From Amoebophrya sp. A120 (Eukaryota > Protista > Dinoflagellata), in NCBI GenBank assembly GCA_905178155.1, contig CAJINV010000010.1, positions 3,244,587 to 3,308,586 on the forward strand: a DNA stretch of 64,000 bases, given 5' to 3'. Numbering within the stretch: the stretch's first letter is position 1; each line of letters opens with the position of its first letter. A program made the position numbers and the translations under genes. Below the pieces are notes generated by a model, which worked only from the letters and a program-made list of their open reading frames with translations, made no database searches and was not told where the DNA came from. Of the stretch, positions 17,601 to 62,849 are shown piece after piece.

Positions 17601-20600
17601 TGTCTTGCAAGACAGCAATGGCATCCGCTCCGCCCCACTATGCTGGCGGTTTGTAATGCTGTTGGTCCTACAGCATAGGCGTTCCCCATGCTAAGCGCCT
17701 AGGCCAAAACCTCTGCGCACTGGCATGATATCGGCCTGCAGTCCCCTACTGCAAGACAAATCTGATTTGTGTACGCAGATCCAGCATCAGAAGTTTCGTT
17801 TTGATATGGGGTGAGGGCTTTTTTCACTTTGATACCGGACGGAAATAGGTTCCCGGCCGTGGGTCAGCGCCAAGGCGACGGGCCACCCCTGCTGCGGGAA
17901 CTCGCAGCCCACGCAGTGGCAGAGGTCCGGGTAGTTGCGCAACTTGAATTCCGGTGGCACCTTGTCGCGAAACTCCGTGTAGGTGTACGAAGACCACGGC
18001 CCGTAGACGATCCCGGTGAGGCCGCTATCCTGTGCAAAAGTATCGTACTCGTATTGCAATCATGCACTACACATCTTTTCCCTAAGGTAAATCAGCACGA
18101 AAAATTTTCTTCCTCATCCTGAGAAAATTTGTAATGCATTCATACGAGTACGATACTTTTGCACTGCATAGCCGATATCCTGCACCAGCTCCCGTCTCGT
18201 CTCTTCCCTCGCGAGAATCCGGAAAAAATCGTCCTCACGTTTATGGCTTGCTCAAACGTTACATCAATCCCAAACGTTACAATAGAGTTGTCTGCGTTCT
18301 TTTGTATTGCAACATATTAAAAATGAGCATGACAGACTCGAAGAGCGTTCCACTTTGTGCAATACAAACCCTGCCCAATTGTAGTGCGGCATGGGACTCT
18401 GGAACTTGTCATGCGCAATCCTATCTTCAGAGCTGGCTAGATAATGCACTTCTTCCATCACAGATTTCCATATTCTATGGTCACCGATTTGAGATTGTAA
18501 CGTTTGAGCAGGTCATAACGTTCCCGCGGCTGCCACCCCGCTTCCATATTCAAGTCCACGGATTTCGAAAGGCCGTATGAACTGCAAAAAAATCGTACTC
18601 AAATAAATGCATTACAAATTTCCTCAGCATGAGAAATGAAATTTGTAATGCGGATTTACGTCCAGAAAAAAATTTGTAATGCATGATTGCAATACGAGTA
18701 CGATACTTTTGCACTGGATAGGCCAAACTGTGTGCTGATCCAAAGCTCCAGCTTCACCGGTTCTTGCCGCGGGCGAGCAGAGTCGAGCCTGTAGTCCAAC
18801 GTGTCGTAGTACTTTTCCCGATAGTACTTTATTTGTTCCTTTGCGATGTGCCGAAGTAGGGTATCTGGCTCGTGGCCGCCGGGATCGCCGCCGGGAATGA
18901 ACAGAAAGTCCAACCTTGGCAGCGCTTCCTGCACGAGTTTCCAGTGCGTATGGGAGTGTCAGGATCGAAATCGACAAACTCGAAAAATTTGTATTGCATA
19001 AAATGTAGAACACGTAAGGCCTGTGCTGGGGAGCAGGCAAATGAGACCGACAGCAAGCCTGTTTAGGGGAGGACGATGTGCTGCCGGATTAGCAGGAGAG
19101 GAGCAGTCATCTTTGCCCGAACAGCATGACAGATTGGATTTTGGTCGTGCTCCCGAAATTTGTCATGCGCCACTTGGAAAGTGAGGCTGCAACTGGTATC
19201 GACTTTATGCATCACAAATTCTTTCGATTTTGTTGATTTCGATCCTGGCAGTTCCATAGTGCGCTCTCGCCCTGTCGAGCGCCCCGTCCTCCAGCGCGTA
19301 GCTGGGAAAAAAGGCGGGGAACCAAATGCTCACGTGCAGGTCCAGCAAGTCGCAGTATCCTGTGCAAAAGTATCGCACTCGTACTAACTGCATTTATGCA
19401 TTACAAATCTTTTTCTTGAGCTAAATCAGCATTACAAATTTTATGTGTCATGCTGAGGAAATTTGTGATGCATTCATAGTCATACGAGTACGATACTTTT
19501 GCAAAGCATACGCAGTACTCGCTGACGATGCGCAGCATCTCGAGCCAGGAGGTGGTGAAGTGCGGCGAATACGCGGCGTCGTCCAGCCTATCAAGTGTAA
19601 AAATGTCTGGGTCTGGAAGACTGCGCGATTTGTCATGCAGCTTTTCCATGACCCATGAGGCCTGGAATGCAGGGCCTAGCATGACATTGGTGGTCTACGG
19701 GCAGGACGTCCCGGTGGCACGACGGCCGATAAGCTTACAAATATCATGTTGTCGCACTTAAAAATACTTAAAAGATGAAGAGCATCTTACCGATCAGACA
19801 TGAGATTGAAATCTTATTGCCTTGCTAGCGCCAAAGAAAAGGAGCACAGCATAAGGCAGCAAACGTATCATCATGTATCAGCTGCATACGAAGTTTTATT
19901 TTACGAAATTCGACGAGTAAAAATACTAAAAAAATGTTGCAAGTCAGACGTGAGGGCGAGTTCTTACATCTTGCTAGCGTCAACGAAAAAAGAGTACAGC
20001 CGACGACCAACAAAAAACGCGTCATCATGTGACCACTTGCATACGAAGTTCCGCGTACGAAGTGCGACGACATAATATGCAGGGCCTAGCATGACAGATT
20101 CTGCGCGATCTCTCTCATGCCTATTCTGCATGAGAAACTCCCTCGCGACTTGGGCAAAACTGGACGACCTTTGGTAATCATGCAACACAGATTTTTGCAT
20201 GCTGCAGATTTAGCATGACAAGTTACATCCTTCCAGACCCAGACATTTTTACATTTGATCCAGCCCCGGGGGAATCACCTCGATGCTGTTGCAGCCAAAG
20301 AGCGCCACGTCGAGAATCTGCTGCCGCATCTGCTCTATGCACTGCAACAGTATCGTAGTCGTACTAGTTCTAGAAGTAAGAATTGCATTACAAATTTTCC
20401 CAAGAACAAAAAAGCAGTTTGTCATGCTATTTCAGATAGAAAGTTGGATTTGTCATGCATATCTGCAATTAGTACGAGTGCGATACTTTTGCAGTTCATA
20501 TGCTCCGGCGAAAACGCGTCGTACGCGTTCGTCTTCGGGCGGTAGGCATATGAAGTTGCTAAACGTTGACGCTCTTACATGGATTTGTAATGCAAAAGTG

Positions 20601-22698: not shown

Positions 22699-25600
22699 TC
22701 ACACAACGGCCTCCGCGATAGCGTAGGGTTTGCGCAAGAAGCAGTTCTTTTCCCTGATTAAACCTTCACACACAAAACGCAAGCAGTCCCAGGCCTTCGC
22801 CTCAACCTCGGGCGTCTGTGCCTGTAGCAGCGCGGAAATGTCTCCGAACGTCCGCTCGGTTTGCAAAATGCCCTGCAGGTGTTCAGGCGTGGTTACCTCG
22901 TGTCGGACTTCCAACGGTTGCTGATTTTCTAATGTCCACGTTTTATCGTACCAAACAAGGCTTGCGTACCCCAACTTTTTGAGCAACAGGTCCTCAAGCA
23001 CCTCCCTCTGCGCCCCCGCCTCCGTATTTTTTCGATGGTGGGGAAAGTAGTTTCGGGAAAAGGGCTTGTGGTGGCGCACGTTCAGGTCCAGCAGCGGACT
23101 GACTTCCGTCAGGAAATGTGACAACACGCAGTTTTTAGAGACATCCGGGCTCCAAAGGGCCAGGATTAACGACGAGGATGGTGTAGTAGTAGTAGTACCA
23201 TCTTGATCTTCTGCTGTAGATGAAGCTCCACTTATTTGCGACCCGGTCGTCGTCGCGGTTTCCTGTATGGCGTTCTCAAATGTTACATTCTCAACTGTTA
23301 CATGATTTGTCATGCAAAGCTACAATCAGAACCGACATGGCCAAGCTGCTGCGCATGACAAATTATTATTGTTATCACTAGGAGATGGAAGTTCAATATT
23401 TTCTTCGCCGACACCTTGCCCGCCCTTGCTTTGACTAGAAACTCCTTGACCGTCTGCCAGTAATCCAGTCTCCTATCCGGGTCGAGCTCGATGCAGTAAT
23501 TTGTGGGGTCGGTGTCAAAGTGAAAGCCCAACCAGATGTTTGTTGTGCTCGGCCGCTGCAGCTTGCCCGGTTTGTGATGCAACTTCACCCCGAGCAACGT
23601 GAGGATGTAGATGGTCCAGTCGAGTGCATCGTTTGCTTCTTTTTCGACATCTGGTCCATCATCATGGACAAACCGAATATCATCCACGTAATCGAGCATC
23701 CCTGCCGCTTTTACCCCGTTTTTCTTGCACACGTTGAGGCATTCCTTGATGAAAGCATCATTTTGCTTATGCGGGGTAAAATGTCAGCGAGAATGTGAGA
23801 CTTGACTCTGCTTTGCATCAAATCGTACCCATTTGCTCAGGCATAGATGAAAACGAAACAGCACTGACTTCTCTGCTGACATTTCACAAGATAATCACCA
23901 GGAGCACAACCTATGCCAAACGGCAAGAAAAGATGACTTGCAAGATTTCCCTTGTAAGTCTCCGTCCATTCCAGCTTCACGCCCAGATATCGTCTGAACG
24001 ATGGATGCACGAGCCAATGGGAAAAGCTATCCTTTGCGTCTAAACCGCTGATCCTCGACCACGGTTTCAACACGGCGAACAGCTTCCAGAAGTCGGCGTA
24101 GTCGACCTCGGTGGAAAAAATCGCCTTGTTGAGATTCGCCTGCTTATCGGAGAAGTTGGAAATTACTCTGATCTTGTCGTTGCGCTGGAACAATACTGTT
24201 CCTGGCACTTGGAGCAGGCCCGGCGGTTCTTCGCCTTCCGGGTAGACTATTATTTTGCCACCGTCTTCGAAGCGTTTGAACTCGGCGTTGAACGTCTGCG
24301 CGTTTTCTCTCGCTGCGGTTTGATTCCCGCAGATGCGTGGCTCGGGCAAGTCGCCAATCACTTGAAACTTGACTCCCGTCATCGCTTTCAAGAGGACATC
24401 GGGTTTCATCCCCCACCGGATGCACTGCTCCGGTGATATCGTCAGTCCCCGGACTGCTTGCATGTCCTCGAGCTCGCGGTAGACGTCTTGCGGCCCTGGC
24501 TCCGCTGCTAGTGATGCCAACAACTCGTCGCACGTGACTGGGCAGCCTATCGCCTTGTAGTCGTCCACCGTGTAATCCGAGACCGGTTTGTACCAGCCAT
24601 ACGGATTCAGGCTCTGTAAGCTCCAATACAGGTCTAAGTCTGCAAGGTCGTCGCCATCCGGTAAATCGTCCACAGCGGGCATACCGTTGCTTCGCGCGTC
24701 GAAAGGTTCCTCATCGTCTGAACTCGGCGGTGGGCTATTCGTGTTCGCTCTCTTCCACGAGCCTTTGCGGCTGGAATCCGGAACCTGCTGTACTGAAGCC
24801 GGCGTGGTGAAGCTTACCTGCTTCTTTGTCGAGATTTTCGCACACGGGGTGCTGCCTGGTGCCGCCCTTGCGTCGTCGGCCAAGGACAGCAAATCCACTG
24901 ACGCATTTATCGCATCCCAGTTTGGCTCGTCGTCGTTGCCTGCCATCTCGGCGGCCGCAGCGGGCCTTTTCAACGACGGCTTCAGCTGTGTGAATGTGTC
25001 AGCTTTGTCCTGCTGTGACCTTTCTACCACCTCGCCGCTTTGGCTGTCCTCGTACTCCTGATGAGTGGTCTCGCGGTCGTCGATCCACTGCTCGTCGTCG
25101 ATCCACCACTGCTCTTGCTCCCAATCATCCTGCTGGTCATCATCGTACCAGTGCTGGTCGTATCCCACATCCGGCACAGCTTCGTGATTGTCGTCGGCCA
25201 GGTGCTTATTCTGCTTCTCGTACCAGGTGCTCGCACATGACGAAGACGAGGCGGACGCGCTTGCCGCTGCTTCGTCCGCAGCTTGAGGCGGGTGCCAATC
25301 TCCATCTTCTTCGTTGAACCACCAATCCTCGTAGTTGTAGTCTCCGCTGGTGTCATCAACCCAGACTTCTTCTGCCCCCGCGTGCTGGTTTTGGGCGTTG
25401 TCCTGCCACGTGCCTGGCTGCGGGAGTGCGCCAGGCTGCCAGTCAGGCTTTTTCTTGCCTCGCCGACCTCTTTTCCCCATCTTGATGAACGGTGGGACAA
25501 TCACGCTACAACTTACTCTACTGAGGGCAGTGTCACGCTAATCCTGCCTCAGACTACGCTTCTCGCGCTCTCTCTTGGTGAAGAGGTCGCTCACTCTATG

Positions 25601-28600
25601 GGAAAGCTACTCTCCACTCATGTGCGCAAGCAGAATCAAGGTTCACCCTCACTGATGCCGGGCGACTAAACTACCTGCGCCTGCTCGCGCCACGAAAAGC
25701 TCGTGCTAGCCGACGGAACAACTTGCTGTCACATGAGTGCAAAGAGTGCTCGGGCTTCTCTGTCGACACTGACTTGATAAATCTTCCAGAGTTCTACAGC
25801 TGTATCACCACAAGGTTTCAAGTGCAAAGACAGTCTTGAGCAGATCTACGCAAGCGTTAGAGGTAACATCAATGCTGCCTTTCCTCGGTGCGACGAAGCT
25901 GACGGCTATCGTACCTGTGGAAAAATACGATGGGAATAGTGTGCTTGTGACCGCCATGAATCCATACTCGTGCTGTGATCGATGCAAATTTACCTGAATC
26001 TATGACTCTCATCCTGCGTGCAAAAGACGCCACCATGTAGTACCTCGCGTCCAGCATCCGAGCGACGGATAATCTCGTTTGCGACAATCGCCACTCACCT
26101 GAAAGTGTGGAGAAAACGATGAAGACATGCAAGCGTCTCGTGGAGGAGACGATGAAGACATGCGAGCATCTCAAGGTACAAACTACATTCGCATGCATCC
26201 CACAACCGTCTACCTTACGGGAGCCCGTCGTGGATGTTCCTGCGCTTGTACTCGTGATCTGCTGGGTCCGTGTAGTCATCACCTCTCTTGCGGCGCTCCA
26301 GACTCTCACGGCGATTCTTCGCCAACATGGCATCGATGAAGAAATTCTTCAATTCTTTCGTCTGGTCCGGCTCGCCCTCGTCGGCCGCTAACTCCTGCTT
26401 GGTACTCAAGAAATCCATGAGCCCCAGCAAGGAGACCCACTTCTTTCCGAGCGCCGTCTCGTCCGCCGAAGGAAATTCATAAATCTCACCCAGAGCTTTC
26501 CGCGTGTTGTGCACCGCACCGTGCATGATTTCCAACGCTCGGGTCTTCGACTCCATGGTTTCCGCGAGGAGTTCAAGACATTCAAACAACAAGTCAAATA
26601 ATAAAGGTTTCTGCACGTTCTTGTGCTTGAAGAGGTGCAGGAAAAGAGCCTTAAAAGTTTTGATGACTTCCGCGAAGGGCGGATTCACATCATCCTTGAT
26701 TTTCACAATCACCATTTTGAAATGCGACATCAGACTCGTGAGATTCACACGTTTGAAGTGTTCTAAATCAACAAGGTGGGCCAGCTTGGCCGGCACCGGT
26801 GGAATCGACGTCGACATGATGACAGCAGAAGGAAGTGGTGAATGCAGTTAGTGTAAAATCTAAAGATTTGTCCCTGTGGTGCGATAAGCAGATGGTAAAT
26901 GCTTGAAGTATGTCCATCTTTAAAAGATAATACACTTAGACGAAGAAGTGCTATCTAGAATCCAAACAAGTATACTTGACATCAGCTTAGTATAACTTAT
27001 TCTTCTTCTTCCGTTAACATTTCATCATCGCTCGTGTGATCATCGTGATCGTCGTTCAAAACTCCGTTCTGGTCGACTAGGATTTGTAACAGCTGCGGCA
27101 GGGTCGTACCGATTTGTTGTCCCAAGCGGACAATGACGTTGCGCATAGCGAGCACGCCGCCCATCTGCCGTCTGCCGGCGCTGTAGTTTATCGCACATTA
27201 CGAATAGATAAGGCTCATTTGATCTTCGTGCGTGACATGCCGTCTGCGCATTATTAAAAACTTAAATTTCGATCGCCATGAATATACCGACACATTTCTG
27301 CGGCTTGAAACACAAAATAAATTTGTGCAGCTGCCGTGGCCGTTTCCGCGTGAATATGCCCTTCGCGCAGGAGGAAGTACAAGAGCGCCACGCGCAGGCC
27401 CGTCGTGGTGTAAAATTTAGCTGTGAGTCGTTTTTGTATACACCAGGTGATTTCATGAGTCATTCGAGCAAATGTGCATTACCCCAACTATTATTTATAC
27501 TGATGTAGACCCAGTGCGCCACCGCGCGGTCCGTGGACATCCAGGTGCTCGGCCAGTAAGTGTTGTCGCCCCACAGTGTCGTGACGACTCTGCGCGGCAA
27601 CTCCGTAACCACCGCCACCGTATGGCGTAGGATCGCGTACCCGATGGCGACTCCCTTGGAGATGAAGCTCCAACTGCCCTGGAGCGCCAGGCCCAGCGCC
27701 GACAACGAGAGAATCGCGAGATCACGCATCATTTTCAGATCTTCTTCTTTTTCGTCGGTGGTTCGTAATCCGAGCAATCAGTGGACTTGGAACCCGGGGC
27801 GTTGATAAAATCTTCGTCCTGAAAAATCAGATAGCCCTCAGCAGTCTCTCTCACTTTCATGCCGAGGACCGTCTTGTCCTCCGTGGCTGTCCCAAAGATC
27901 AATGGGTAGGGAGACACATACGACGTCGTCGTTCCATCTTTGCGAAGCAGCTGAAAGACGGTTTGCCCATGACCGAACTGATAATAGACTGCCTTCGTAT
28001 CGACTGGCATGCCGAAAGAGAACTGGAACAAATTCTGCTTTAACTGTAGCTCTTTGTCCACCGGCATCCTAAACATTGATTTCGAATAAGTTCATGTGCG
28101 GTTTTTACAGCAACGACGTGTCGTTCAATTTGTGTACAATGTCAAGGAACGGACCAAAAACCGCCCTGTCGAGCTTGTTGTTCAGCGCCTGCTCATACAG
28201 ACGTGGTACTTTTTCAGACAAGGATTCTGCGCTCACCATCGTCCATCTGATCTCGTTCACAATTGCAGCTAACTGTAACGACTTACCCGACCTCGTTGCC
28301 TTTTCGACTGCAACATCAAGTCTTTCTAGTTTCTCATCGTTCCTCTTGATTGTTATGTTTTTCGAAAAGTGATTGTCAACCATGATTCGCTGATGAACTG
28401 GATCTATAGGACTGTAATGGAAATCCAAACTGTAACTATTTCGCCAGCCACCCTGCCACATTGCTAATCTCCTCGTTGGATCAGACGTGGTAAAGTAAAT
28501 AGCACCCGCCTTGCGCAGACTGATTGGTCTATCTACCGCTACATGGGGTGTTTCTACTGTAAAGAACGCTTTTATATCTTTCCTCACAGCGTCTTTCGAA

Positions 28601-31600
28601 GACTTTTTCGCGGCTCTCGTGCTGCAATTGTTCGCGCCGATCACGGGGAAAAACGGGGCGGAATCTTTCCAGTCTTTGCTGGTGTGGTGCAGGTAGAAAG
28701 CGGACATGTACTTGGAGTACTCATGCGTTAGATAGGCCGGCGTGCCCGACGGTAGGAAGGCTTCGTGACCGAGTCCTAGCTGATCAATCTTTGATCTTTT
28801 CACCTCTACACTGAATTGCATGCTGCCGTCTTTTGCTCTTATCGGCTTGATGTCGCTTGCTGTCAGGCTCCACAGCTCCGCATTCCGCCGCACTGCGAAG
28901 AAGGCGATCAAGACCTGAATGAGCGAGATAAAAATATCCAAGAAGGGATAGGAGTTTTTGATGCGACATTACTGTGGCCTAAAATGCAATCCACGAAACT
29001 ATACCATGACTGCTTTCTGCAAACGCAGGAGATGCTCCAAGCCGTTCTTGTATTCCTGCAGGGCTGTCTCTGAATAGTCGCCCGTTCTAGACCGTAGATG
29101 GCCGGTGTGCAAGGTCCAGAAGGCCTCGATCCGCTCGAGGCCAAGCATTACTTGGCTGAAAGTCGGCGCGAACTTGTGATGGCCGGGGGACGTATGATAC
29201 GCTTCCTTTTTTAAGGCTTTCCAGATCCGTTGCAGGTACGGGGATCTCCCATCATGCAATCTAAACGCGGCTAGATGGAGCCTGGAGCTGTTGTATGCTC
29301 CTATTGCGGCTGACAGCGTTAAAAAGGCGCTCCACTTTATCCGCTGTGACTCTTCATGCAGATACGACCTGTGGACTGCTCTGGATGTCTGGAAACACAC
29401 AAGGAAGAGCAACACCTCAGCCTCCGTTTGGAGCGGCCAGAGGCAAAAACCTAATTCGGCGCATACTCGTGGCACGACCGACCTGAGCATCGAGGCGTAT
29501 GTACCGTGCGTGCCCGATTTTATCGACTTCCCTTGCAGATCTGCTGCCGCCTTGACCAACACGTCCGACAATTGCTCGGACACTGGAAAGCCCGCGAAGA
29601 TCTCTTCGTCGGAGAAGCGAATTTCGAAGTTGTCTGCGAAGACTGTGTCCTTGCGGTACGGTTCGTACCTCTTCGATGCCGCTACCGTTGTCGCCGCTGA
29701 GCTGTAGAAGGCTTTTATCGCTTGCGTCGACGGAAGCTTTATGGCGATTGCGCTTCTCCCTGCTACTATCTTTTCCGACTTCAGCGGGCAGAGCGAATCG
29801 GACGTGCCACTAGAAGACGACGCCGAAGAACTACTGGACGATGAGGACGTGGCTGACGAACTGCTGGCTGCCGCTGGCTGTGCAGCCACGACCTTCTCCT
29901 CCACACTGCTCTGCAGAATGATTTTGGACCAGTCTTCCTCATCCGCGGTGTGGAAATCGTAGCTGTCGACTAGCTCCAACTCGTCCTCACTGTCGACCAG
30001 ATCGTGTACTTCGCAAAGCGCATTTAAGGAGCTGCTCGCCACCGCCTTTCTTCTTTCCAAATCTTCGTGGGTGCCCGTCACCTTAAACAAAGTTGTCGAG
30101 AAATTATGCGCATCAGCTGGTTCTTCGAGGTCTTTGTGGTCCTTGCCCAGCTCCTCCAACGCTTGCTTCTTCCAATTTAAATCGAAATCCGCCGTCTCGA
30201 TCGCATCTTGCAAGGAGGACTCGATCCCCGTCGGGTAGTATGGAGGCGGTAGCTGGGCTACGGGCCTTTTGCGGCTTTGTTGCTGCTGCTTCTGGGTTTC
30301 CGTGGCGGCTTTTAGGTCCGCGGAAACAACTTGTAACCGCTTAATCTTGTCGAGCTTCTCGGCTTCCGCTTTGGCGCCGAGAGCATCTTTTATCGCTTCA
30401 TTTGCAATAAATTTATTCATCCTCGAATCTAACGCAGTACAGATGCATGGGTCGCGAACATCAGAGTGCAGCTTGCATAATAGTGTCCCCACGGTCTAGA
30501 ACAGCTTTCGCTCGAACTGGCGTTTACTGCCTTGCATCTCTGTGTCAATAAACTTCTGTGTCACAATCGCACTGTTTTCAAAAAACCTGGCTTGTTACAA
30601 AAAAGACTCGCGACTGCCTCTTTCAACAAAACACTCGAAACTGTTGTTTACTTGGTGCCTGCCGCCGGCAGTGCACCATTCTTTCCACCCTTGCCAGCAC
30701 CTTTCTTCCCGCCCTTCGGATTCTGCCCCTTGCCGCCCGCCTTCGGTGTGGCTTGGCCCTTGGCGTTGGACTTTATGTGCTTCAAAGCTGGTGTCACCTC
30801 CGCGCAGACGACATCGGCGTCGCAGTCCTGAGGGGATGATGAGGAGCGGGATAAGAGAGAGCCCAAAATGCCTAATATCATCGGATACATGACAAACAAC
30901 AAATAGTACCTCTCTCCAATGCGCTTTCCCACTGCACGCGGGGTTTAAGCATGCGAGCGCACAGGGATTTTTGGATGCTTTACACGAAATCAAGCCCGGC
31001 TTGCCGTCGAGGTGGTTGTTACCAACTCCTTTTCCCAATAGAAAACAATTGATGCAAGTTTGGGACCACTTGATGTAGCTTTTCGTCAATTCTTCGTTCT
31101 GCGAGCGGGCTCTCTCGTACGCTCCGCGCGCTCCCGACGTCGTCAGCGGGGCTTCTTCGAAGATTTGCTTTATCTTATTCCAGGCTTCTGTCTCGGCTTT
31201 TGTTTGCTTTCTGCTCTGCGTTGCCGTGCTGGAGCCTGCTGCTGGTGCTCCCGGTCCTCTGAACCCGACTTCCTTCAGGGAGGTGCCCGCGGTGTGTAAC
31301 AGCTTTTCTAAACACTGTGGGCGGCACAGGTTGTCCGTACAAGCGCTTGTGAAGGAATTCTGTTATGCGGATTTTGGAATTTGATACGAATGTCCCATGT
31401 GTGTTTGTCATGCGTGGCACGATGCAACAACCCTCAAACCCATACCTGAAATTCCATCACAAAGAAGGCCTCGTCCAACGGATCCGCCGTAAAGCGGTTT
31501 TTCAGCTTCGACGAGAAGTCTTTAAAATAATAGTAAATTCCAAAATTTTGATTCGGTGGTAACTCGTTGTCTTGCACGTCGCCACCTTTTTTGAGCCTTG

Positions 31601-34600
31601 CGGTCTGCTTCTTTTTGAGATGCTTGATCAAGAAGAGCAAGTAGTTGGCCACTACGGACATGTTGTCGTGGGGGAATAAAGCGATGACATTCGTCAAGTA
31701 CGACTCGCACTTCTCCGCGGAACCGCTTGGCGGTAACAACAACTTCGCCCAGGACACCTTCTGCTGCTCGGATAAATTCTTTAGGTCGATGTACTCTTGT
31801 GCGGCTACTGAATTTTGGGCTTGCGCCGTCGCCATGATCATCATGAGTTGATTTTGAGAATTTTTCTCTAATTTACGCTGTTTCTGGAGTGGTGGTTGTT
31901 TGAGTTTCTGATAACTCGACAACTTTTCTTCATCGTCCATACTACAGAACTTACTGCACCAGCTGTACCGGGCGCAGATTCTCGTGGTCAGCTGCGTCGC
32001 GCCAGTGCGCTCCTCGACGCGCTTCTCTACCACCTTTAAATCTTTCCTTGATTCTTCTCTGGTACAGCGGTTGCACTTGCATGTCGATCCCAGCAAGTCG
32101 ATGGTGCCGAACTCCTTCTCTAGCAGGGGACCTCCATCGTTGGTGAAACATGTCTTGCAAATCGACCTTTTGCACTGGTCTCCTGCCGCATTCACCAATG
32201 CGCTGCATCGGTACTTCGCGTCGGCTTCCGGGACAGTGTCGCTGTCGCAGATGACGCAAAAGAGAAGCACAGCCATTCTACCGCATGTTTTTGTAATAGG
32301 ACTTACACCACCTAGAAGCAACAGACGATTCAGACGCGGACGCATACTAGCAGGGGATCTTCTGCATGCTCACACTCTGAAGTCTCTCTACACTCTGACT
32401 CTCTGGAAGCTCTCAGGAGAGGTGATGTAGCCAGTACCCAAAACTCGCGCTAGAACAACTTTGTCGAGTTGCGGCAAACGTTCCTTCGAGGAAACAGACA
32501 AGGTTTTTGGTCCTTGTCCTGCTGTGACCTGCGGGATGCTGATGTTGTAGAAGCTGATCGATTCTTTCGCGGAAAAAACAGGTCACATGTGACTTCAGGT
32601 CAGAATAAGTTCGATGCACCTTGTGCTAATGACTGGTTGTTCAACGAATGCGAAGTCTACATGACCGGAGCGCATATAACTTATGGCTCGCTTCTCTGCC
32701 CCGGCGACGGCGGGGTGTCGCGGGGAATCATAATATCCGCATAACCGGAAATCAACCCTTGATCACTCGCTAGCTCCTTCGTGGCGCCACGGCAGGGAGC
32801 TCCGTCCCGGCACCACTCCACGAAGATCGGGTTCCAGGTTTTGGCGTTGCCGAACGGAGGCATCGTGATTACCGGCATCTGGAATAAAAGCTCGCGCATC
32901 CGCTCGTGGGCCGGGGCATCCGGGTTCAGAGCGCGCACCGTGTCCTGTGATCAGAATATTATGGTGAATTCGCATTCAAACCACCCATGCGGGTTGACCA
33001 ATCAAACAGAAACACAAGCATTGTACCAGCAGCGCGTTCTTAGTCGATCTTGAAGATTCCTTGACCAGGTTCCAAGCTCTGTCCGCTTCGGCGGCACGCT
33101 GGCTTTCGGCCGTGTGCATCGCGGTGGCTGCGACGTTGAAGTTCATCGAAGCGCAGCGGACCGTGTTGCTGTGCACGAGCGCAGCATGCTGTTCCAGGAT
33201 GTCGGCGACGCCCGCCAGCGACATCCCTCCGAAGACCAGCGCTGCGAAGGCCGGGGCGTGCAGAGCGGTTTCTTCGCCTGCTGCGGATTTGATCCGCTGA
33301 GCGTGAGCTAGCTCACGAGCCGACAGCTGAACCATCTTGTGGAAACTACTGCTGCGTACTGCTAACGCGGGATCTAGGAACAAAGATCGACCACTGCAGG
33401 CTGCACAGCGCTGCAAGCAAACAAAAGAGGGTTCCACTCCGTGAGCGAACACTGTACTCCATCGAAGTGACGCGCTGCCACATCCTCAGCAACTGTTGCT
33501 GGCCTCACCAGTGGGAGGACTTGAAACGCTGCCACCGTGTGACACAAGCTCGACTGCGGGTGCAGGAGCTAAGTAACATCTCGACCGCAGTGCGGGAGCT
33601 GAAACTAGACTGATTCTCGACCGCGTGCGCGGGAGCGATCAGAGGCGCTTGCATGGTGCAAGGCGCCGGAAAACTGTTCGAAAACAGTGAAATGATCATG
33701 GTCAAGTGTGATAACGGGATGCTTGACCCCCGCTCATGGAACTTCCGAACACAAACGATCTCACAATTCAGACTTTACGAACTCCTATCGAACTCCTCCA
33801 ATCTCATAAAAGGGCCAAACAGGCTGAGAATCTGTTCCACATCCGTCATGCAAGGCACGCAAGGTCACCCCGTCCACTTTTTCCATTCTTGCATCACCAA
33901 GTCATGTAACAGTTGAGAACGCGACAGTTGAGAACACCATATCCTGCCCGGCCTTCTGTTGTAGTTCCTGCAACACGTCGCGACTGTGGAGCGCAAACTT
34001 CTTCAACGCGTATTCTTCTAGGTAGTGCGCACCGAAAAGGGAAACCACCGACGCGGCACGCTTTAGAACCTCTGTCGACCCGTGTCTAGTTGGGCTATGG
34101 CTGTCGTCGGACACCCCGCGGCCACATGATCTTGGTTGTATTTCTAGCTGCCCCTGCTCGTCCGGTCTGCTGGTGCAGAGGAACGGCAGACACCGACTGT
34201 GGCTCACGTCACCCTGGTGGAATTGACACGGAAAGTTTTGGAACGGTGACGTTGACCTTGTTTGCTCCTGTTTTGATGCTCTTTCTTGCTCCGTATGCTG
34301 TGCAAAAGTATCGCACTCGCATAAATGCAACTCTTGCTCTTGCATATGCATTACAAATCTTGTTATTGAGGCAAATCCGCATGACAAATTCCATTTCTCA
34401 TGCTAAGGAAATTTGTATTGCAATTCATACTAGTACGATACTTTTGCAATGCATACTCCGCCTCCTGTGCGGCAGCGACCGCATCCGGGTCAAAATCTAT
34501 CCCGGTGTAGCTATCTACGTTCATCGAATGAACAAGTTGTAGGTGTTCTTTATTATCTGCGTAGTTCTCCGCTCGCGCCGCCAGCTCGTGCGCCAGATCT

Positions 34601-34863
34601 CCATGGCCGCACGCAGCGTCAATGACCGTCAGACGACACGGACCGTGGCTCTTGCTTTTGTCGTGAGCAGAAACAACAGGCTTGGATGCAGTTGAAGAGG
34701 TGCTTGTCTTGTCAGCTGGCGTTCGCTCCTTGTTCTTTGCCAACAATAGATCCACGACTGGCGGCATGGCTGCTTTGACCAGACTCCGGTACAGCTGCGA
34801 GTGCGTCGGGTAAATGCGCTGTTGGCAGGCCTGCAGCAGGTTGCTGTTTACAAAGGCCTGCAT
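22699..34863 (-). CDS. Class I SAM-dependent methyltransferase; exons ~34456-34863, ~33942-34288, 22699-23260
   Basis: VIDAACGHG, YTGIDFDP, FHQGD..LPF, VVSLFGAHY motifs; both joins in frame (EAE|QER, AGQ|ETA). Confidence 0.8.
23395..25504 (-). CDS. DIRS-type reverse transcriptase with long acidic N-terminus; probable ~130-nt intron near 23767-23897; truncated before RNase H
   Basis: KIRVISN, LDAKDSFSHWLVHP..RRYLG, LPFGIGCAP, YVDD, K...P....WLGFHFDT motifs across ORFs 23837-25504 and 23310-23732. Confidence 0.85.
26215..26817 (-). CDS. Hypothetical helical protein inside the retroelement
   Basis: 200-aa ATG-initiated ORF co-oriented with YR/RT; no motif recognised. Confidence 0.5.
   Translation of the reverse strand: MSTSIPPVPAKLAHLVDLEHFKRVNLTSLMSHFKMVIVKIKDDVNPPFAEVIKTFKALFLHLFKHKNVQKPLLFDLLFECLELLAETMESKTRALEIMHGAVHNTRKALGEIYEFPSADETALGKKWVSLLGLMDFLSTKQELAADEGEPDQTKELKNFFIDAMLAKNRRESLERRKRGDDYTDPADHEYKRRNIHDGLP
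27735..30492 (-). CDS. Tyrosine recombinase with N-terminal core-binding region; GT-AG introns 28915-29004 and probably 28069-28108
   Basis: Spliced read ..QKAVM|VLIAFFAVRRNAEL..VKRSKIDQLGLG..ISLRKAGA..QGGWRN..DFHY gives the R-K-(H>I)xxR-W-Y set; C-terminal PTKKKK NLS-like. Confidence 0.85.
30648..32345 (-). CDS. gag-like protein with N-terminal PHD-like Cys cluster and C-terminal Cys/His knuckle, multi-exon
   Basis: CVICD..C..CKRSICKTC..CKCNRC; downstream CINC..H..C..C..C..H and G/K-rich tail; GTATGG and GTAAAC donor-like sites. Confidence 0.5.
32976..33452 (-). CDS. Hypothetical Ala-rich ORF at the 5' end of the retroelement
   Basis: 158-aa ORF co-oriented with the element. Confidence 0.3.
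   Translation of the reverse strand: MFAHGVEPSFVCLQRCAACSGRSLFLDPALAVRSSSFHKMVQLSARELAHAQRIKSAAGEETALHAPAFAALVFGGMSLAGVADILEQHAALVHSNTVRCASMNFNVAATAMHTAESQRAAEADRAWNLVKESSRSTKNALLVQCLCFCLIGQPAWVV
34294..34455. mobile_element. Introner family B
   Basis: TSD CTCCG; frame restored. Confidence 0.9.
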
Positions 34864-35966
34864 CTTCTTGATGCTCGTCAGGCTATTGTATCAGCCGCGT
34901 TCAATATGATCATGTAACTTTGTCTAAGTACCTTCGTTGCTTCTCGTATAAGTTTACGTTGGTTGTATTTATTTGGCTTGCTCGGAAAATTTTAGTGGAC
35001 AAAAACATGGGAAAAAAAAAAGGTCTTCATGGAAAATATCGCAACCGGGTGAAGATCTTCGATATTGTCGACTCTCTGTCACTGCGCCAGGAGAGGGAGG
35101 GCGCGGAAGCTATGACTAGGTAATTCGTGCCGTTAGGATAAAAACCGGCGGTAGACGAAAAATCAGAAAACAACTAGTACAGAGACCCATGCACAAAGCA
35201 CTACCGAGGAATGATCATTCAACCATCCTTTCAGATCACCATCGAATCAATTGAAGTCTCTTGTTGTTCGGGTTCGGCATCTTCGGATGAAGAAAAAATA
35301 GGTCAGGGATTCTCTGCTATTGCTGTGCCAGTACCACTCGGCACAAAATAAACCGGAAATAGAAGAACCTGTTCCTCACTTGTGCAGCTGATCCTCTTGA
35401 AGATGTGAGAGGTACAACTACTAACGCCTTCGGCGGACCACGACCTATCCAGGCGGTCCTTGTTCCTTGCGCGAGGGACCGACGACAACGCTCGCGACGT
35501 TGCGGTCGCGACATAATTCAAAGTTTCTGTCTAACGTTTGAAGAGAATCACTCTAGGAGTTCTTGTTCTACGTTTTGCTTGCATATAAGCAGCACCACGC
35601 CAGGATGATGATGCTCTTCAATAGTTGTCGACAGTATCACGACCACATCAGGCTCCATTGTACACGGTCGTGTGCCCGAATCAACAAAAAACAGCTATGC
35701 GTTGGTGTAATAACTCTATCGAGCGAATCACATGACAAATTTCTTGTTCGTGGTTCCCGCCCAGTAGCATCGGCCAGCAAGAGTACTTGCTGGACGTGAA
35801 GAAACAACTCACGACAGGTATAGCCTGCAATGCCGCACATCTCGCATCATGACAGCTCGCTGCATGTTTTTTTCCTCTGCATGATAATGAAAGAATGTCA
35901 ATGTATTTCACAACGTAAAATCTAGTTCTGTTTTACACCAAACCCCGTTTATCTTTATTTTCTCTT

Positions 35967-55900: not shown

Positions 55901-58148
55901 TTTACCTAGTATTTTAAGGTGTAATGTGTTCGCAACCTCACCTAGATGGCAAGTACACGCATGGCAAATCTATACAAATCTTCTTTTATGTCACACAGGA
56001 CGTACTTCTGATCAACTACGCCTTGCAGGCTTATCGTTGCAGCGAAACATCACTTTTTCCGTGCGATACTGCACGAGCTGCTGCGAATCGTAGTGGGACG
56101 CTACAATCAAGTGATCCGCCCCGTGATTACGCTGGAAAAACGGACTCCGCCCCAACGCGTAGTCCAAGAGCTTGACCAGATCCAAGTCACAGACCATTCC
56201 TCCGCTGCAATCTGCATCACACCCCTCCATTTTCTCTGCCTGCGCCATATGCATCGCAAACATCATGTCTGGGTCTGGGAAACGGAGCACAACTTGTCTT
56301 GCTGAGTCTGGATCGTGTGAAAATCTTCTGTGTTCGATGGTTACCACAAGTTTCTTCACCAAATGGACAGGCACATCATGCGGAAATAAAGGCATTAGTA
56401 GAGATAAAAATATCACAGAACAATCTGTGATGCCACGGCATGGTGCATCACAGACCTGATGGAATAAATGGAAATGGATGCGTCATGCAAAATGTGCATG
56501 ACAAACGGTGCACTTCTCCAGAGAACAACTACCCAGACTACATATTTGCACTGCATACGCCACTGCTTCTGCCGATGCCGGGCAACAAATCGGACTCAAC
56601 TCGGCATAGCCTAGTTGCGCGTCTGAAAGAAGGTTCAACAGCGTCGGAACCACGAACAGTGTTGCGTTTTCAGGGTCACGCGTACGCTATGGGGTTCTCA
56701 GACACTCTACACGCTTGAGTGGTACATGAATGATCTGTCGCGCAAAAAAAATTTATTAGCATCAAACAACAGCCACACCATGAGGCTGCTTCGCATGACA
56801 AATTGTTTTTGTTGCTGAAGTGCTACTTCAACAGCATGGACGAAATCTGTGCCGAATTTGTGCTGCGAGAGGTGTAAGCAATCTCCCTCCTGTCACAGTC
56901 ACTTTTGCTATTCTGCCACCGAAAATTCATGTAACAGCTGAAAGCGTAACGTTTGAGAGTTCCATATACGCCACGGGTGTAGTTCTGGGTCCAGGGCCCG
57001 CTCGGCGAACAGAACGTCAGATGAGTGCTTTAGAAGCATATTGGCATCGGCAAGCGCTTCGTTCAAAGTAGAACTGGGGCCACCAGTCGCATTCACAGCA
57101 AGGGAGCGCTGGTCCGGGCCCCACACGCATCCAGGATGCCGCCAATTGAACTCCACCTCTTCGTACACATAAAACGGCACAGGCGGCAAGCGGGCGACGG
57201 GGTTCTTCACTGCGTCAATTGTTGAAGAAAGATGAACAGGAAGACTTTTACTAGTACCTGCTCCAGATGTTGAAGTCGAATCATGGTCCACGCGCTGGCT
57301 TCGTTCTTCGGAGGTCCTCTCCTGTGGTGTGGTCTTGACACTTGTTTTGCTTGTTTCTTGGCCGCGGCTGCGGGGCTGGAGATGAGATATCTTCTTCTTA
57401 TGCTGGCGGTGGCCGGCGCTCCTTCTCGACGATGAACCTTGCTCCGCCCTATCAAATGCAAATGTGTCTGGGTCTGGAAGGTTGCAAGTTTGTCATGCTT
57501 GTCTCGCATGACCCTCAAATCTGTCATGCACATTACCCACGAGCCCTATTTTTCTGTCATGCAGAAACGCAGTCTGTCATGCAGAACGGGCAACATCTAG
57601 AAGCTCAGAAACTTGTCATGCTGAGCCAGCACTTGTGGCCTCCTCATGATACGCCACCCAGCATCACAAGTTTCCAGACCCAGACATTTTTGCAGTTGAT
57701 ACGCCCTGGCTTGATGTTGTATCCTCCGCCCCGTCGACGTCGTCCTCGATGTTGCTACTTCATGGGACGAATATGGCGCTCTCAAACGTTACATTCTCAA
57801 CTGTTACACGAATTCGTGATGCAAAAACAGCAATAGGGAAAGGGGCAGGGTTGCAAGTCTTGCATTACAAATTTGGCACAGATTTAGATGCTGTTTAGCC
57901 CTTCGATAATTTGTCATGCGAAGCAGCTTGATTGTCTGGCGGCTCATGTATTTTTTGCATGACAAATCATGTAACAGTTGAGAATGTAACGTTTGAGAAT
58001 GCCATAACGAATGCTCTACAACTTGAAGCCTGTGTGCGTGCGCAGGGACGATATGTTCGTCGAGGCAGGCTAGTTCTATTATCCCAAGGAGCAGAGGGGT
58101 CGCTGCCTTTGATGCCTTCCGGCGGGAGAAGTAGCCGGGTTTGGACAT
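52933..58148 (-). CDS. Exostosin-family (GT47) glycosyltransferase; 10-11 introners; 3' end uncertain
   Basis: PFYVYE, SPFFQRNHGADHLIVASHYD, RFTLYAHGDVAGSSRLSDALEHGTVPV..LPF..VPW motifs. Confidence 0.8.
53281..53537. mobile_element. Introner family A
   Basis: TSD TCGAA. Confidence 0.9.
53695..53934. mobile_element. Introner family C
   Basis: TSD CTTAA/CTTGA. Confidence 0.9.
53979..54289. mobile_element. Introner family F-like
   Basis: TIR TATTACAATGAAAAATACCCCCAC, TSD CAGGT. Confidence 0.85.
54693..54967. mobile_element. Introner family A
   Basis: TSD ACTCG. Confidence 0.9.
55016..55283. mobile_element. Introner family A
   Basis: TSD CTCCG. Confidence 0.9.
55409..55691. mobile_element. 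Possible degenerate family A introner
   Basis: TATGCC..CTGGGTC / GACCCAG..ACTGGATA; TSD not conserved. Confidence 0.4.
55787..56068. mobile_element. Introner family I (divergent)
   Basis: TIR TATCGC..GAAAAA, TSD CTGCG/CTGCA. Confidence 0.75.
56248..56557. mobile_element. Introner family A (divergent)
   Basis: TSD CGCCA. Confidence 0.8.
56688..56966. mobile_element. Introner family C (divergent)
   Basis: TSD TACGC. Confidence 0.8.
57450..57701. mobile_element. Introner family A (reverse of 47389-47641 subtype)
   Basis: TSD CGCCC. Confidence 0.9.
57772..58006. mobile_element. Introner family C
   Basis: TSD ACGAA. Confidence 0.9.
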
Positions 58149-60583
58149 ACTTCGTGTCGTTCCGAGCTGGGGGTGTTGAAGATCCAGATCTACTTTTCCG
58201 CGGGGCGATGTTGAATAAAAATAAATATTACAGTAAAAAGACGAGAAAAACCTACAGCCTGCTCCGCCCAAATTTTGGGAAACAAACACAGAAAGCAGGC
58301 GCGACACGAACGAGGCAACGAGAGCAGCCGGGGCGGGGGCTAGTACGGAAAGTTGTGACTTTCTAACTATATTTAAAAACTACGTGAGGCACGACAGGTC
58401 GAGTTGGTCTTCGTTCATCGGGGTAAAAACTGGAACTTTAGATGTAGGTGGTACGTAAACGTATCACGACGAAATACAATAAAGATACGAAGAAAAACAT
58501 GACGAATGTTGTATACCACAGCGAGCTAAAGCTTTTTGCTGGTCATGTAGTAAGTAGATTAATAAACGGGCATTTGATCTTTTTCGGATACGAAGTACCG
58601 AGAAGTGAGGACGACAGGTTGCAACACGATATCTGCGAGAGAGGACAGAGACCTACGGGAACGTAGCCGGACGAAACCGAAAGTCAAACAAAATCCCTGT
58701 CTGCAAGATGGGAGTGGCGCACAAGAACGATAGTCTCGCACACTGCATCTACACATCCAGTTTTTTTCTTGCCATTTCCTGAGTACGCCGAGTCATGCTT
58801 CGCAAATAAAAACTGTTTTCTTGGCCGCGGGGAGACATCACCACACTCCCATCTCATTTCACCCTGGCGCATGCGTGTTCGGTGGATGTGTTGATCAAGT
58901 GTAGGAAACACTTGTGACGAGATTCGTCGGCCGCTCGATATGTAAATCATAAACGAAAACTTAACTCATATACGAAGTCGACAGAATCTAGAATAGTTGC
59001 ACGAGTTCTTGTGGAACGATTAGGTTTTGTTGGACGAAGGAACGATAAGACGTAGAATATTTGAACAAAGCGGAAACGGAGTTGTCGATGCAAATATTTA
59101 TATATATGATAAACTATAGTGCTAATTACGCAGGAACTGATTGATGTAATCCATCAAGACCGAATGATGTTCGAAAGTGGCTTCTTGGACGAGAGCACAA
59201 GAGACTAGCCACAGGACTGGTCCTCTACGGTAACAGAACAACAAATCACCAGCACCTCCCTCGTGGTCATCCGTTCAGAAATTAAAACAGGGAACCCGCT
59301 GCTGGCGCACGAAGAAAAAAACAACAGCACGCAGCTCCCGTACATGCTGTACTTCTGCTAGCGTTTATTTTTTTCGTAAAGTAGTTGTTTTTCATCGGGG
59401 GTGGAGCTTGCAATTGCATATGTTTATTTCATCTGAAGAGAAGTAGCTTGCTGCAACAGAAAATTACGGGGTCCGCAAATTTCGACCGGCCGCTAGAATT
59501 GTAGCTTATGACATCGGGCTCTTGCGCCTCGCCCAGCGTGGGTGAAATTATTATGAAGCCAGTGCCTGGTTAGGCACGGCATAGGTTCGTTATTTGCTTT
59601 CATACCCCGCTACATGAAGTGGACCTAACGTACGGACAAGCCTGTGACTGATTTGTAGAGTTCTCTACTACCTCCTCCAGCCGTGTTCTCTCGAGCTTGT
59701 TTTATGTTGCAACAGCCACCTGCGTTCTTGGCAAGGAGTTACAGATACAGTAGTGAAACAGGGATAACGATAAAGCCAAATGAGTGGGGCTGATAGTAAA
59801 AACTGGGGTACAGCTGTACAACGATTAATTTCTTCTTGTAATATCCGATATCACATTCTGTAAGTAAATTTTTTCTTTGGCTTGGCATTGGGATCTGGTC
59901 ATCGCTTCGAAAAAGTTTGAATTTTTGTCCGAAAGAACATACGAAAAGTTTGGGTGTTGTCTCTTGCACCCTTTGCATTTGAGGCCTTCTCGCCTGCCTG
60001 CTTGCAGCCCGGGGTAGTAGAAGTAGACAACACCAAACTGATGCTGTGCTCCTAACTGCTCCGAAGCTGAAAGGGCCACGAGGACACGAGGACGGACCGA
60101 GGCAAGAGAGAGAGAAAAAAAAAAACGTGGAACGTTCATTAACGGAGCGAAATTATGCAACAGCTGTAAGTAGTTGTTCTTGGTCCAGATCATTGCGCAA
60201 TTCTCATCGGGGCTACATGAATCTTACTATCTCGTCTGGGGAATCGGAATGTAGAAATCAAAAGGTCGCGCGTTGGTATTCATCTGTTTCTGTTCTGGCT
60301 GCAAAAAGAAAAACTAGAATGCCGAAATGAAAAATGATAAAAAAGGGCGGCCAGCGTTTTCAGCGATCAGCCTCCTGCAGTTGGACTGAAGCCGGAACGT
60401 CAGCCTTCGCTGGTTCGGAGGTGCGCTGGTAGTCGTCGTCGTGCTAGCACCAGACACGACTTTCGCCGTGTGGCGTGCCTATTCGTCATAGTTGGGTCTT
60501 TGCCTTTCTTTCTATCGGAGTGGGAATTCAAAAAAAAAAAAATTCAAATTTGTAGTTGACCACTACGACCTCAACAAGGCCTT

Positions 60584-62367
60584 TTACAAGGTTTTCGACC
60601 GTTGGGGGGCCGCGCCAGAGGTATGCCACGCTTCGGCATTCGTGTCGGTGTCGCTGCTGAGTGCATGAGCCAGAAACTCGTCCATCGCCGCTTTAGCCTG
60701 GTGCCAGGCCCCGGCATCCGTTGCCCCCCCCCCGGATTCGTCGTCGGGTGGAGCAGGTTTGTCCCACGGCTTGTCTGCTCCAATAAAATGCTGCACGCTT
60801 GCGCTCGCGCAGTTTCTAGAAGTCTCACTCGTCCAGCGGCAACCAAACTGCTTCGGCTCGAAACATGCTACCCGGCCCTCGGTGCCCGGAAACGTAGTCC
60901 ACCCGTTTCTTGTGGTCAGCGCGTCAGTGCCTTCTTGGTGCACCGGAACCGTCGCGCTCCCTCCTCCACGATGGGCGTCGCTCCTGCTTGTGTTGAAATA
61001 CATGTCGTCATTGTTGAAATACATGTCGTACACCAGACGATTGAAAAGGCCCTGCTCAGCCTTCCAGCACCACTGGTCGCCAATAGTTTTGTTGCTCGAC
61101 TTTAAGATGGCGTCATAGCGCTGCAACAGCTCTGAATTGCCCGGGCGAATCATCATCACGCCGACGTTGAACGGGTAGCCAGTTTTGCCTGAGGCGGCCT
61201 TGGAAATGGCGGCGCAGGACTCTGATTCCGCCCTTTGCTCGTCGCCGGTTACTGCCACATCCGGCACTCTCCCCGCGATTTCAAGATCTTGCTGCAGGGC
61301 CGTGTCGCTCCTGCCCCCCGGAGAGCTCCCACCTGTGAATTGCGCGAACAGCCGCACTATGCATTGTAAATATGTCATCTGGGTCTGGAACAATGCAAGC
61401 TTTTGGTTGGTTGTCATACTAAATCTGGACTCTGGCGACCTTGATCGACCTGAGACCCATCCCCCCCGTTGGATGTGCGACACGCCGCTGGCGCTGCACG
61501 TTTGTCGTCGAGCCGACCAAAATCCAATTATGTGTGTTGCAGGATTACCAAACGCCGCCCACTTCTGCCTGACCTGAGAGGCAATCTCTCATGCAGGCGA
61601 GCCACGATCTGCATATCTATGAAGACCTCACAGAACAATCTCTTATGCTCATGGGTCGGGGACGGGGTCATGGTCGTAAGCCTGCGTGAAAACTCTTGCA
61701 TTGTTTTCCGCAAGACCCAGCCACATTTCCATTTGATACAGCCCAAATCTCGCTGCACCAGGATGTCAGTGTCCAAAAGGAGAACGGCCCGATACTCCAA
61801 CAACCGAAAGCCGTTTGCCTTGTGTATGGCGCTTCGTGCTATTTCTTTGCCCTTCAGCATGAACTTCTCGCTCCCCTGGAACCACTCGCAGGCCGCAATT
61901 GCCATGCGACAGGCCTCTCCCAATCGAAACGCGGGCATGTCGCGCGCCTCGATGCCGAGCGCAGCCATTTTCCGAGCAATCGAGGCTTTTGGCCACGTCG
62001 TATTTGTCTGCTGCCCCGAAGTGTCCGTGCCCATGTCCATGTCCAACTGCGGACGCATTAGGATTATGTCGCGGTGGCAGAGTTCTGTTGCCCGGATGGA
62101 ATACGCCGCGGTCCAGAGGGGAATGTAGTCGGCATCGGTCGCGTTTCCATAGCCCGCAGGAGGCCAAAAGAAAAACGCGTACGCCTCGTCAGTGCGGCAT
62201 CTTCGCGCTGTACGAGTGGGAGCCGGCCCATAGCCTCCTGCAAAAGTGCCGGCTTGCCCCGTGCTATTCTGTTGCGGTGGCGCTGGTGAGCCCTCTAGCA
62301 CAGCAACAGGCACGGGACCTTTTCTTGCGTTGCTTCGGCGGTCCAAAATGCGCTGCTGCCGATGCAA
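60584..62367 (-). CDS. Glycosyltransferase family 8 (glycogenin/GolS-like); one introner; start uncertain
   Basis: EYRAVLLLDTDILV (DxD), FNVGVMMIRP, AEQGLFN, VQHFIGADKPW. Confidence 0.85.
61358..61738. mobile_element. Old, expanded family A introner
   Basis: TATGCATTGTAAA..CTGGGTCTGGAA / GACCCAG..CATTTGATA; TSD diverged but removal with 5 bp keeps the frame. Confidence 0.75.
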
Positions 62368-62849
62368 TGTGTCCGGACCCGCCTGGCAGAGTAATTGGTT
62401 AGTTCGAAGAATATTTCGGAAAGAACCGCGCTAATAAAGATTTTTACATATACAAGAAGACGGGTCGCCCGGTTGGGCGACCCTTTCTTGGGCTTGATTC
62501 TTTTGTATGCTGATAGCGACTACGCAGCAAAAAAATGCTCATTAGGATTGCTGGGCCGGGCTCCATGCGAAGGGAAGAGGGCGGGGGAGAGATAGTGTGA
62601 GAAGCCTTGAGCGTCTCGGTGCTGGTTCGTTCTCTTTATGCCGCGGCGAGGCAGGGTCTCTCGCTGGACAGCGCGGCCTCTCCTGGCCCTTCGTTCCGGG
62701 GGAGCAAACATCTGCGACACCAGCTCCGGAAAGCCTGGGCGCGCACGATAACCCTGGCCGCGGCCTTCTGGGGGGCATGCCGCTTTTTGCTTCCGTGCCG
62801 TGCGTTGAGTGCCTCCCAAGGAGCCTCCCGGCGGGCCATCGGGGGGCCT

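Follow-up and report, generated by a model that had tools for sequence, protein, structure and literature searches.

The gene described here lies on the minus strand of a 64,000-nucleotide stretch of the genome of the dinoflagellate Amoebophrya sp. A120 (contig CAJINV010000010.1, positions 3,244,587 to 3,308,586; this whole stretch is called the window, and positions are counted from its first letter). It codes for a methyltransferase-like protein and is interrupted by an intron of 10,681 nt which is removed exactly. This intron is an introner, a short repeated element that leaves the messenger RNA (mRNA) as an intron, split by an insert of 10,441 bp that carries a tyrosine recombinase (YR) gene and a reverse transcriptase (RT)-like gene. 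The model we propose, and in which we place moderate confidence, is that a cut-off piece of a likely DIRS-order element became nested in the introner by a single insertion of intron-bearing DNA, and that the ends of the introner likely set the splice sites of the enlarged intron.

Introner elements of Amoebophrya are reported to carry inverted repeats, direct repeats of 3-5 bp and largely non-canonical splice sites (Farhat 2021, PMC7789003; Gozashti 2025, PMC12130899; these and the other publications below are cited from extracts of their text). The split introner presents the same combination: inverted repeats with conserved ends, a direct repeat within the 3-5 bp range, a repeated family and removal from the mRNA. 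Its left half (23266..23366, 101 bp) ends just past an internal 19-bp inverted repeat, its right half (33808..33941) measures 134 bp, and the insert (23367..33807, or 23365-33805 in the other register, with a 2-bp AT overlap at the junction) splits it at about its base 101. The terminal inverted arms are 44 nt long, 86% complementary and bounded by TAT..ATA, and the 5-bp target-site duplication (TSD) TCCTG is perfect, with its left copy at 23261..23265 (likely AG acceptor at 23263) and its right copy at 33942..33946 (likely GA donor at 33943). Both halves align to four intact copies of a single family in the window (starts 5074, 20549, 53695 and 57772; 233-240 bp), which are mutually 73-91% identical; the rejoined split introner, of about 235 bp, is 74-78% identical to them, as calculated with a rejoined version one base short. 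The insertion point is occupied by four letters in the other copies and by as many in the rejoined one, so that no introner length was lost. The two halves some 10.4 kb apart, the TAT...ATA ends and the perfect duplication had been read correctly in the initial annotation, which was made from the sequence.

A scan of the window yielded 64 TAT..ATA pairs less than 420 bp apart, of which five (4602, 14428, 19742, 20351 and 45296) were dropped for want of a TSD; the 59 kept as introners, 49 of them with a perfect 5-bp TSD, cover 14,166 bp, or 22% of the window. When the scan was widened to pairs spaced at 420-40,000 bp and bearing a perfect 5-bp TSD, only two came up, the split introner being the better one (identity of its terminal inverted repeats (TIRs) 16/20 vs 13/20). 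Very many contigs related to its family are present in the DNA runs.

The following observations support a living host gene and a recognition of the ends of its big intron over a distance above 10 kb, past co-oriented genes. The first coding exon (34456..34863, defined by Pfam and RNA contigs, one of which reaches 34957) holds a class I S-adenosylmethionine (SAM) methyltransferase-like motif and matches Pfam Methyltransf_31 with E=1.8e-5 and 24.9 bits, under the curated cutoff of 27; a PDB search with this exon returned uninformative matches. It is followed by an intact 162-bp TIR introner of a different family (34294..34455, TSD CTCCG), which is removed with one TSD and for which the sense strand offers no G[TCA]..AG register, then by exon 2 (33944..34288, its boundary ambiguous within the 5-bp TSD) and, beyond the split introner, by exon 3 (22699..23262), which ends at the stop codon; both exons are delimited by RNA contigs. 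Removal of the split introner together with its insert restores, as the initial annotation had it, the sequence ..QKAGQ/ETATTT.. in frame, and gives an open 438-aa methyltransferase-like open reading frame (ORF); the corresponding joint, 23260-33942, with 10,681 nt skipped, is present in contigs of all four RNA-like runs (X3, X4, X5 and X6). These four runs derive from one sample and one study and are taken as RNA by guess, introners being skipped exactly in them. The exon parts of the joint-bearing contigs show no difference from the window, and, among the joints listed, this one is absent from the contigs of runs X2 and X7. X6 further contains two pieces identical to parts of the insert (25586-25765 and 31655-31824), so that the culture behind this run carries the insert. 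Cover of the insert by RNA contigs is near zero, which is not read as evidence of silence, and a further RNA run of 2026 (X8), which gave only 52 partial reads, on repeats, is uninformative. Recognition of the ends over such a distance had been offered in the initial annotation as a consequence of its reading, and the joint now supports it in four runs out of four, from the one sample.

The continuity of the insert is attested by one unbroken unitig of 10,598 nt, spanning 23290-33887 and thus both inner junctions, with one differing letter, in the two DNA runs X1 and X2; both were made from a single sample, from which the window too may derive. Its depth in X1 is 41.3, against 38.9-49.1 for the listed flank contigs, and in X2 23.5, against 28 for the flanks. 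At 80% likeness in X2, 24 of the 26 interior bins stand at a depth of 23.5 and the remaining two at 24.7 and 25.9, a flat profile which indicates that there is no second copy of the insert; neither donor nor sibling nor further composite copy was found at an identity of at least 80% in the X2 contigs. Copy number is read here from contigs of sequencing runs, from which rare variants are lost and whose joints are listed in part. The insert is joined to exon 2 by a 20-nt overlap running through copy-specific letters. The base A of the window at 28787 is T in the unitigs of both DNA runs, and this version gives KNDQ, the motif of the YR relatives, so that the window base is likely an assembly (consensus) error.

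All genes of the insert stand on the strand of the host gene. The region 28105..30420 is confirmed, on sequence and fold comparisons, as the gene of a tyrosine recombinase of about 740 aa, with one predicted GT-AG intron at 28915-29010 (or 29004). The catalytic motifs R..K..SLRK..GW..Y are present and aligned with those of homologues, which match both YR exons; a search of 1.84 billion proteins gave the catalytic exon 13 relatives at E<=1e-3, 27-35% identical, and five of the 13 match PF00589, one of them at the curated cutoff. The predicted structure (mean confidence, pLDDT, 76) has Cre/Tre as its top Foldseek hits, with a best E of 2.2e-3 and none under 1e-3, and a YR profile run against the PDB placed Tre/Cre at E 0.28 and 0.97. 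The names of 32 further relatives are uninformative, none of the relatives lies in viral or prokaryote contigs, and one of them is an uninterrupted YR ORF on a metagenome contig which, at 1,751 bp, is too short to hold neighbouring genes. These relatives (P0001-P0050 and L001) compose a clade of proteins of about 500 aa with the motif FFG[VI]RR[NC]xE, found in metagenome assemblies and mostly missed by Pfam.

The identity of the RT-like gene (23367..25480), cut off in its thumb region, is moderately supported. Features of the ESM Atlas point to RVT_1 for both of its exons (nearest labelled clusters at 0.90 and 0.93, from this single source), and the order of LDAKDSF, LPFG, YVDD, LGVK and WLGF, which we take to be RT motifs, fits. 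Some 100 codons past YVDD the frame, still without a stop, crosses from the insert into the introner. RNase H was not recognised by eye in the RT frame or in translations of the insert's 5' end, and a circular permutation that would have placed the missing RNase H at that end was sought in three frames and not seen. PDB sequence searches with the YR and RT exons gave chance hits only, and no split direct, inverted or other terminal repeats were found in the insert by BLAST or a repeat finder; the likeness of its two ends does not reach significance in either orientation (inverted p=0.25, direct p=0.77), nor does that of an att-like inverted repeat there. A Helitron end was rejected, its CTAG lying about 14 nt inside the junction, and a foreign origin is unsupported by composition (GC content at third codon positions 0.62-0.73 in the insert vs 0.57-0.69 in 10 host ORFs).

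The other genes of the insert are less distinctive. A 487-aa gene (30648..32276, predicted GT-AG introns 31360-31445 and 30828-30909) has a Cys-rich N-terminus, a C-x4-C-x4-H-x4-C knuckle and a K/G-rich tail, which we presume to be those of a gag-like protein; it has no significant family hit in Pfam or PHROGs. Upstream lie predicted gene A (32681..33335, about 190 aa, predicted GT-AG intron 32945-33026), which has no assigned function and whose first-exon ORF gave no Pfam hit, and the non-coding 5' end of the insert (33340..33807), with three short sub-repeats starting at 33635, 33598 and 33568 and possibly a lone terminal-repeat A. Between YR and the RT-like gene come ORF C (27735..28067, 110 aa), the hydrophobic ORF D (27460..27732, about 90 aa), a small ORF of 55 aa with an acidic tail (26997..27164) and ORF E (26215..26817, 200 aa); Pfam and PHROGs returned nothing significant for the insert ORFs. 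The gag-like, YR and RT content announced by the initial annotation is thus established for YR, moderately supported for RT and presumptive for gag; that it was an entire retroelement does not hold, given the RT frame without a stop and an RNase H and terminal repeats that were looked for and not found. For the same reasons the insert is a fragment which cannot be filed as a member of the DIRS order, and probably derives from an element of that order, the one combining YR and RT.

Five introns are predicted within the insert, a point absent from the initial annotation. They measure 82, 86, 82, 96 and 131 nt, account for 4.6% of the insert length and, in the chosen model, are GT-AG in four cases and GA-AG in one; after their removal four gene models close without internal stops. 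The YR intron, which contains two in-frame stops, is missing from the homologous ORFs, and its removal gives the spacing of the uninterrupted homologues. The RT intron (23766-23896) holds a decayed inverted repeat which none of 2000 shuffles equalled (fold z -2.3), and the 9-mer CATGACAAA, with 49 hits in the window of which 40 fall in catalogued introners, occurs twice in the insert (0.08 expected), once in each of the two predicted gag introns. Traces of introners are therefore found in three of the five. Intact introners, of which 11.5-13.4 would be expected over the insert, number zero (P about 1e-5), as they do in a 5.9-kb stretch at the end of the window. The presence of decayed introns in intact ORFs without any fresh introner suggests that these introns aged elsewhere, while selection acted on the genes, and that the piece arrived recently; the arrival of introns with the insert favours movement at the DNA level.

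The sequence of events we propose combines these observations. The host exon is interrupted by a TIR element with a 5-bp TSD, the element and one TSD leaving the mRNA, and this introner, its length preserved, contains 10,441 bp present as a single copy with open ORFs and a cut-off RT; so much is shown by the sequence and the contigs. That the insert came second and recently would follow from its open ORFs and its want of intact introners. The predicted introns, with their decayed introner traces inside intact genes, would predate the move, and the insert likely moved as DNA rather than as spliced cDNA: the YR may have excised it, with faulty joining afterwards, or it may have been captured where the introner broke beside its internal hairpin. 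Finally, the insert would be tolerated as the splice sites are brought together by long-range pairing of the introner ends. For the insert this is probably a dead end, and nesting in itself is ordinary.

How the ends are recognised may be approached by folding. The predicted end-to-end TIR duplex of the split introner reaches -69 kcal/mol, the best decoys among 1039 windows reaching -42 and -33; three of the four intact copies give -63 to -77 kcal/mol and the fourth -31 to -37, and the separate introner halves fold no better than shuffles. Inside the big intron 330 YAG and 600 GT sites are passed over. Only 14 of the 59 window introners offer a G[TCA]..AG register on one strand or the other, 45 having none when the element and one TSD are removed. 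We infer that the paired introner ends act as the splice signal of the big intron. The splicing of mostly non-canonical introns in Amoebophrya is still treated as open, with U1 small nuclear RNA undetected and end pairing proposed (extract of PMC7789003). An introner lengthened 45-fold and removed at the same points is in this respect a natural test of the length-independence of end pairing; as it encloses decoy sites by the hundred and several genes in the same orientation, the locus is a ready design for a minigene. It also shows that introners can make exonic positions a neutral space for large inserts.

Several points weigh against this model. The GA..AG ends given by one of the six registers of the big intron would also suit ordinary exon definition. 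The RNA support consists of contigs from a single sample and study, and splicing efficiency and allele mix lie outside contig data. The link of the insert to exon 3 is a 3-nt overlap, unbridged by any single short-read contig, and therefore rests on parsimony and RNA. The four letters at the junction differ among the family copies, so that the 2-bp AT overlap may be due to chance. The RT-like gene gave no hit in Pfam, PDB, phmmer or a word-seeded protein search, and its first exon folds from the single sequence at a pLDDT of 38. The five insert introns are predictions which RNA has not verified; four show no significant inverted repeat (p 0.09-0.74), alignment to intact introners does not clearly surpass shuffles for any of the five (for the RT intron it is borderline, at 2 of 40), and nothing scored above shuffles with a TIR weight matrix. 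A donor copy, moreover, could have been lost by segregation.

Another route to the same structure would be retrotransposition of DIRS type from an unspliced, full-length RNA (intron retention), the YR integrating the circular cDNA at AT, a course of events we consider unlikely but worth weighing. To the same degree, the RNase H region and 3' repeats would have been lost by internal deletion, the last 20-35 bp possibly representing the true end. The intact catalytic motifs of YR, the single strand shared by the gag-like, YR and RT-like genes (the YR/Pol order being variable in Symbiodinium DIRS, extract of PMC5890265), a TSD no longer than 2 bp at the inner junction and an RT likeness that, judged by motifs we take to be diagnostic, fades about 23 nt before the junction are all compatible with it. 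On the other hand, X2 contains no donor at 80% likeness or more, terminal repeats were not found and the end-to-end inverted similarity is not significant, the YR homologues are uninterrupted ORFs, and intron retention is described as peculiar to Penelope-like elements (PLEs; extract of PMC8557442).

A bolder extension, which we hold to be improbable, is a DIRS-derived lineage freed of reverse transcription, with introns in gag, YR and RT, that would move as DNA by its own YR (a passage from DIRS to Crypton) and survive inside introners. If it were true, such a lineage would persist in a gene-dense genome, and the paired ends of introners would remove an intron of any length. Equally doubtful is a Pack-type cargo, in which a TIR element would have captured an old, intronised YR/RT locus, the 10.7-kb composite then transposing as a unit into the exon. 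The perfect TSD and well-kept TIRs, a captured piece that retains introns and is cut mid-gene, and the multi-kb TIR introner families of A120 (Dataset S2, extract of PMC12130899) accord with it; yet neither donor nor sibling of this single copy was found in X2, the completeness of both introner halves fits insertion into a resident copy, and the quality of TSD and TIRs, which is that of ordinary short copies (49/59 perfect TSDs), is silent on joint movement. The long cargo-bearing family member entertained in the initial annotation is disfavoured likewise by the single copy.

A second split introner exists in the window (19589-20259). It is split by an unrelated insert of 410 bp, which holds its own 336-bp inverted-repeat element and has the two copies of a 20-bp direct repeat (19667-19686, 20077-20096) on its flanks; its DNA depth in X1 is about double, and slightly divergent contigs of it occur in RNA-like X5. 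With introners over 22% of the window, nesting by chance is to be expected.

This bears on a further explanation, which seems to us very improbable, whereby an element family would target introners as safe landing sites, for example beside the shared motif GCATGACA or the internal hairpin. The junction does lie about 5 bp past GCATGACA, and the 20-bp duplication of the second nested insert ends in it; introners, however, carry the motif commonly (14.2 kb of them contain 40 hits of the 9-mer), the two nested inserts share no BLAST similarity and differ in junction type, and from one copy neither preference nor co-mobility can be shown. The idea of introners as landing pads, raised in the initial annotation, finds no support in an insert that is single-copy down to 80% identity and in a window of which introners occupy 14.2 of 64 kb; the search for other copies on which it depended found none at that identity or above in X2. 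Finally, that the structure is an assembly or allele artefact, with spliced RNA from insert-free cells or an insert belonging between other introner halves, is barely credible: RNA and DNA do come from differently labelled samples, the X2 depth of the insert is 0.83 of its flanks, the left link runs through repeat k-mers and joints are seen only among those listed, but the unitig is unbroken over both inner junctions in two of two deep DNA runs, the overlap with the exon-2 contig passes through copy-specific letters, the RNA contigs match the exons without difference and X6 contains insert fragments.

The nested DIRS-order fragment we favour has partial counterparts in print, where insertions of a secondary kind, transposon introns several kb long and a TIR introner homologous to retroelements have already been described. 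The 59 introners of the window share the features of Amoebophrya TIR introners, which are typically a few hundred bp long (introns of 40-1000 bp only in the work of Farhat, as extracted), whereas the split introner reaches 10.7 kb and is exactly removed. Closest is A120 family 38 ("5-bp TSD, TA/TA termini", Dataset S2 of PMC12130899), likewise a TIR-flanked intron with retroelement homology; it differs in being about 810 bp long, multi-copy, Copia/Gypsy-like and classed as Ginger-like, where here a single-copy YR/RT multigene cassette lies in a complete short introner. In the same extract of Dataset S2, family 5, whose best peptide hit is LTR (long terminal repeat)/DIRS, may be likened to the split introner, and families 3 and 21, with TE_end values of about 16,100 and 13,900, seem, on our own reading of the table, to include long-insert members. 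Autonomous transposon introns, such as Copia in Panicum and the 13.4-kb VIPER/Ngaro-like family 3 of Polarella, also show a multi-kb retroelement removed as one intron, but their own ends form the intron, while here a separate TIR element supplies them (PMC12130899). That transposable elements insert secondarily into introns is a recognised case, routinely filtered by introner pipelines (PMC9860276, PMC12130899). The view of the initial annotation that such a composite was undescribed was consequently too strong.

As to the insert, elements of the DIRS order (SymbioDIRS, PAT-, Ngaro- and VIPER-like) resemble it in their separate YR ORF, a divergent RT poorly detected by Pfam, a variable YR/Pol order and a zinc-finger ORF upstream (extracts of PMC5890265 and PMC6681497); the insert departs from them by its unrecognised RNase H, its want of repeats and several extra ORFs, and from SymbioDIRS, which are intronless with A-B-A-B repeats (PMC5890265), by the spliceosomal introns predicted in gag-like, YR and RT genes. 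Cryptons and other YR DNA transposons share YR mediation, short microhomology in place of a TSD and tolerance of introns in the YR gene, but have neither RT nor gag and show direct repeats of 4-6 bp, against 2 bp and an RT-like gene here (extract of PMC13465315). Nothing on introns in DIRS elements appears in the extracts of PMC12477816 and PMC8226300, and a literature search, outside which most subscription papers fell, returned nothing on insertion nested in introners or on DIRS with retained spliceosomal introns. Two things are of interest: an intron-bearing YR/RT cassette without a detectable donor, for which retroelements would offer few parallels, and an introner whose 45-fold lengthening has left its removal exact.

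Some minor features of the window may be added. Introners of several families share the 9-mer CATGACAAA / TTTGTCATG, a single element often having it on each strand, and one may speculate that it is a two-way signal, branch-site-like or binding a transposase. Positions 1-1590 form a weakly palindromic tandem array whose units recur about every 130-135 bp and are some 87% identical to one another, and the region 58100-64000, without intact introners, contains short repeats and reaches a GC content of 0.70 at its end. The segment 35675-35972, with the introner 9-mer at 35731, is skipped in an X3 contig and retained in an X5 contig, and is possibly an alternatively retained intron.

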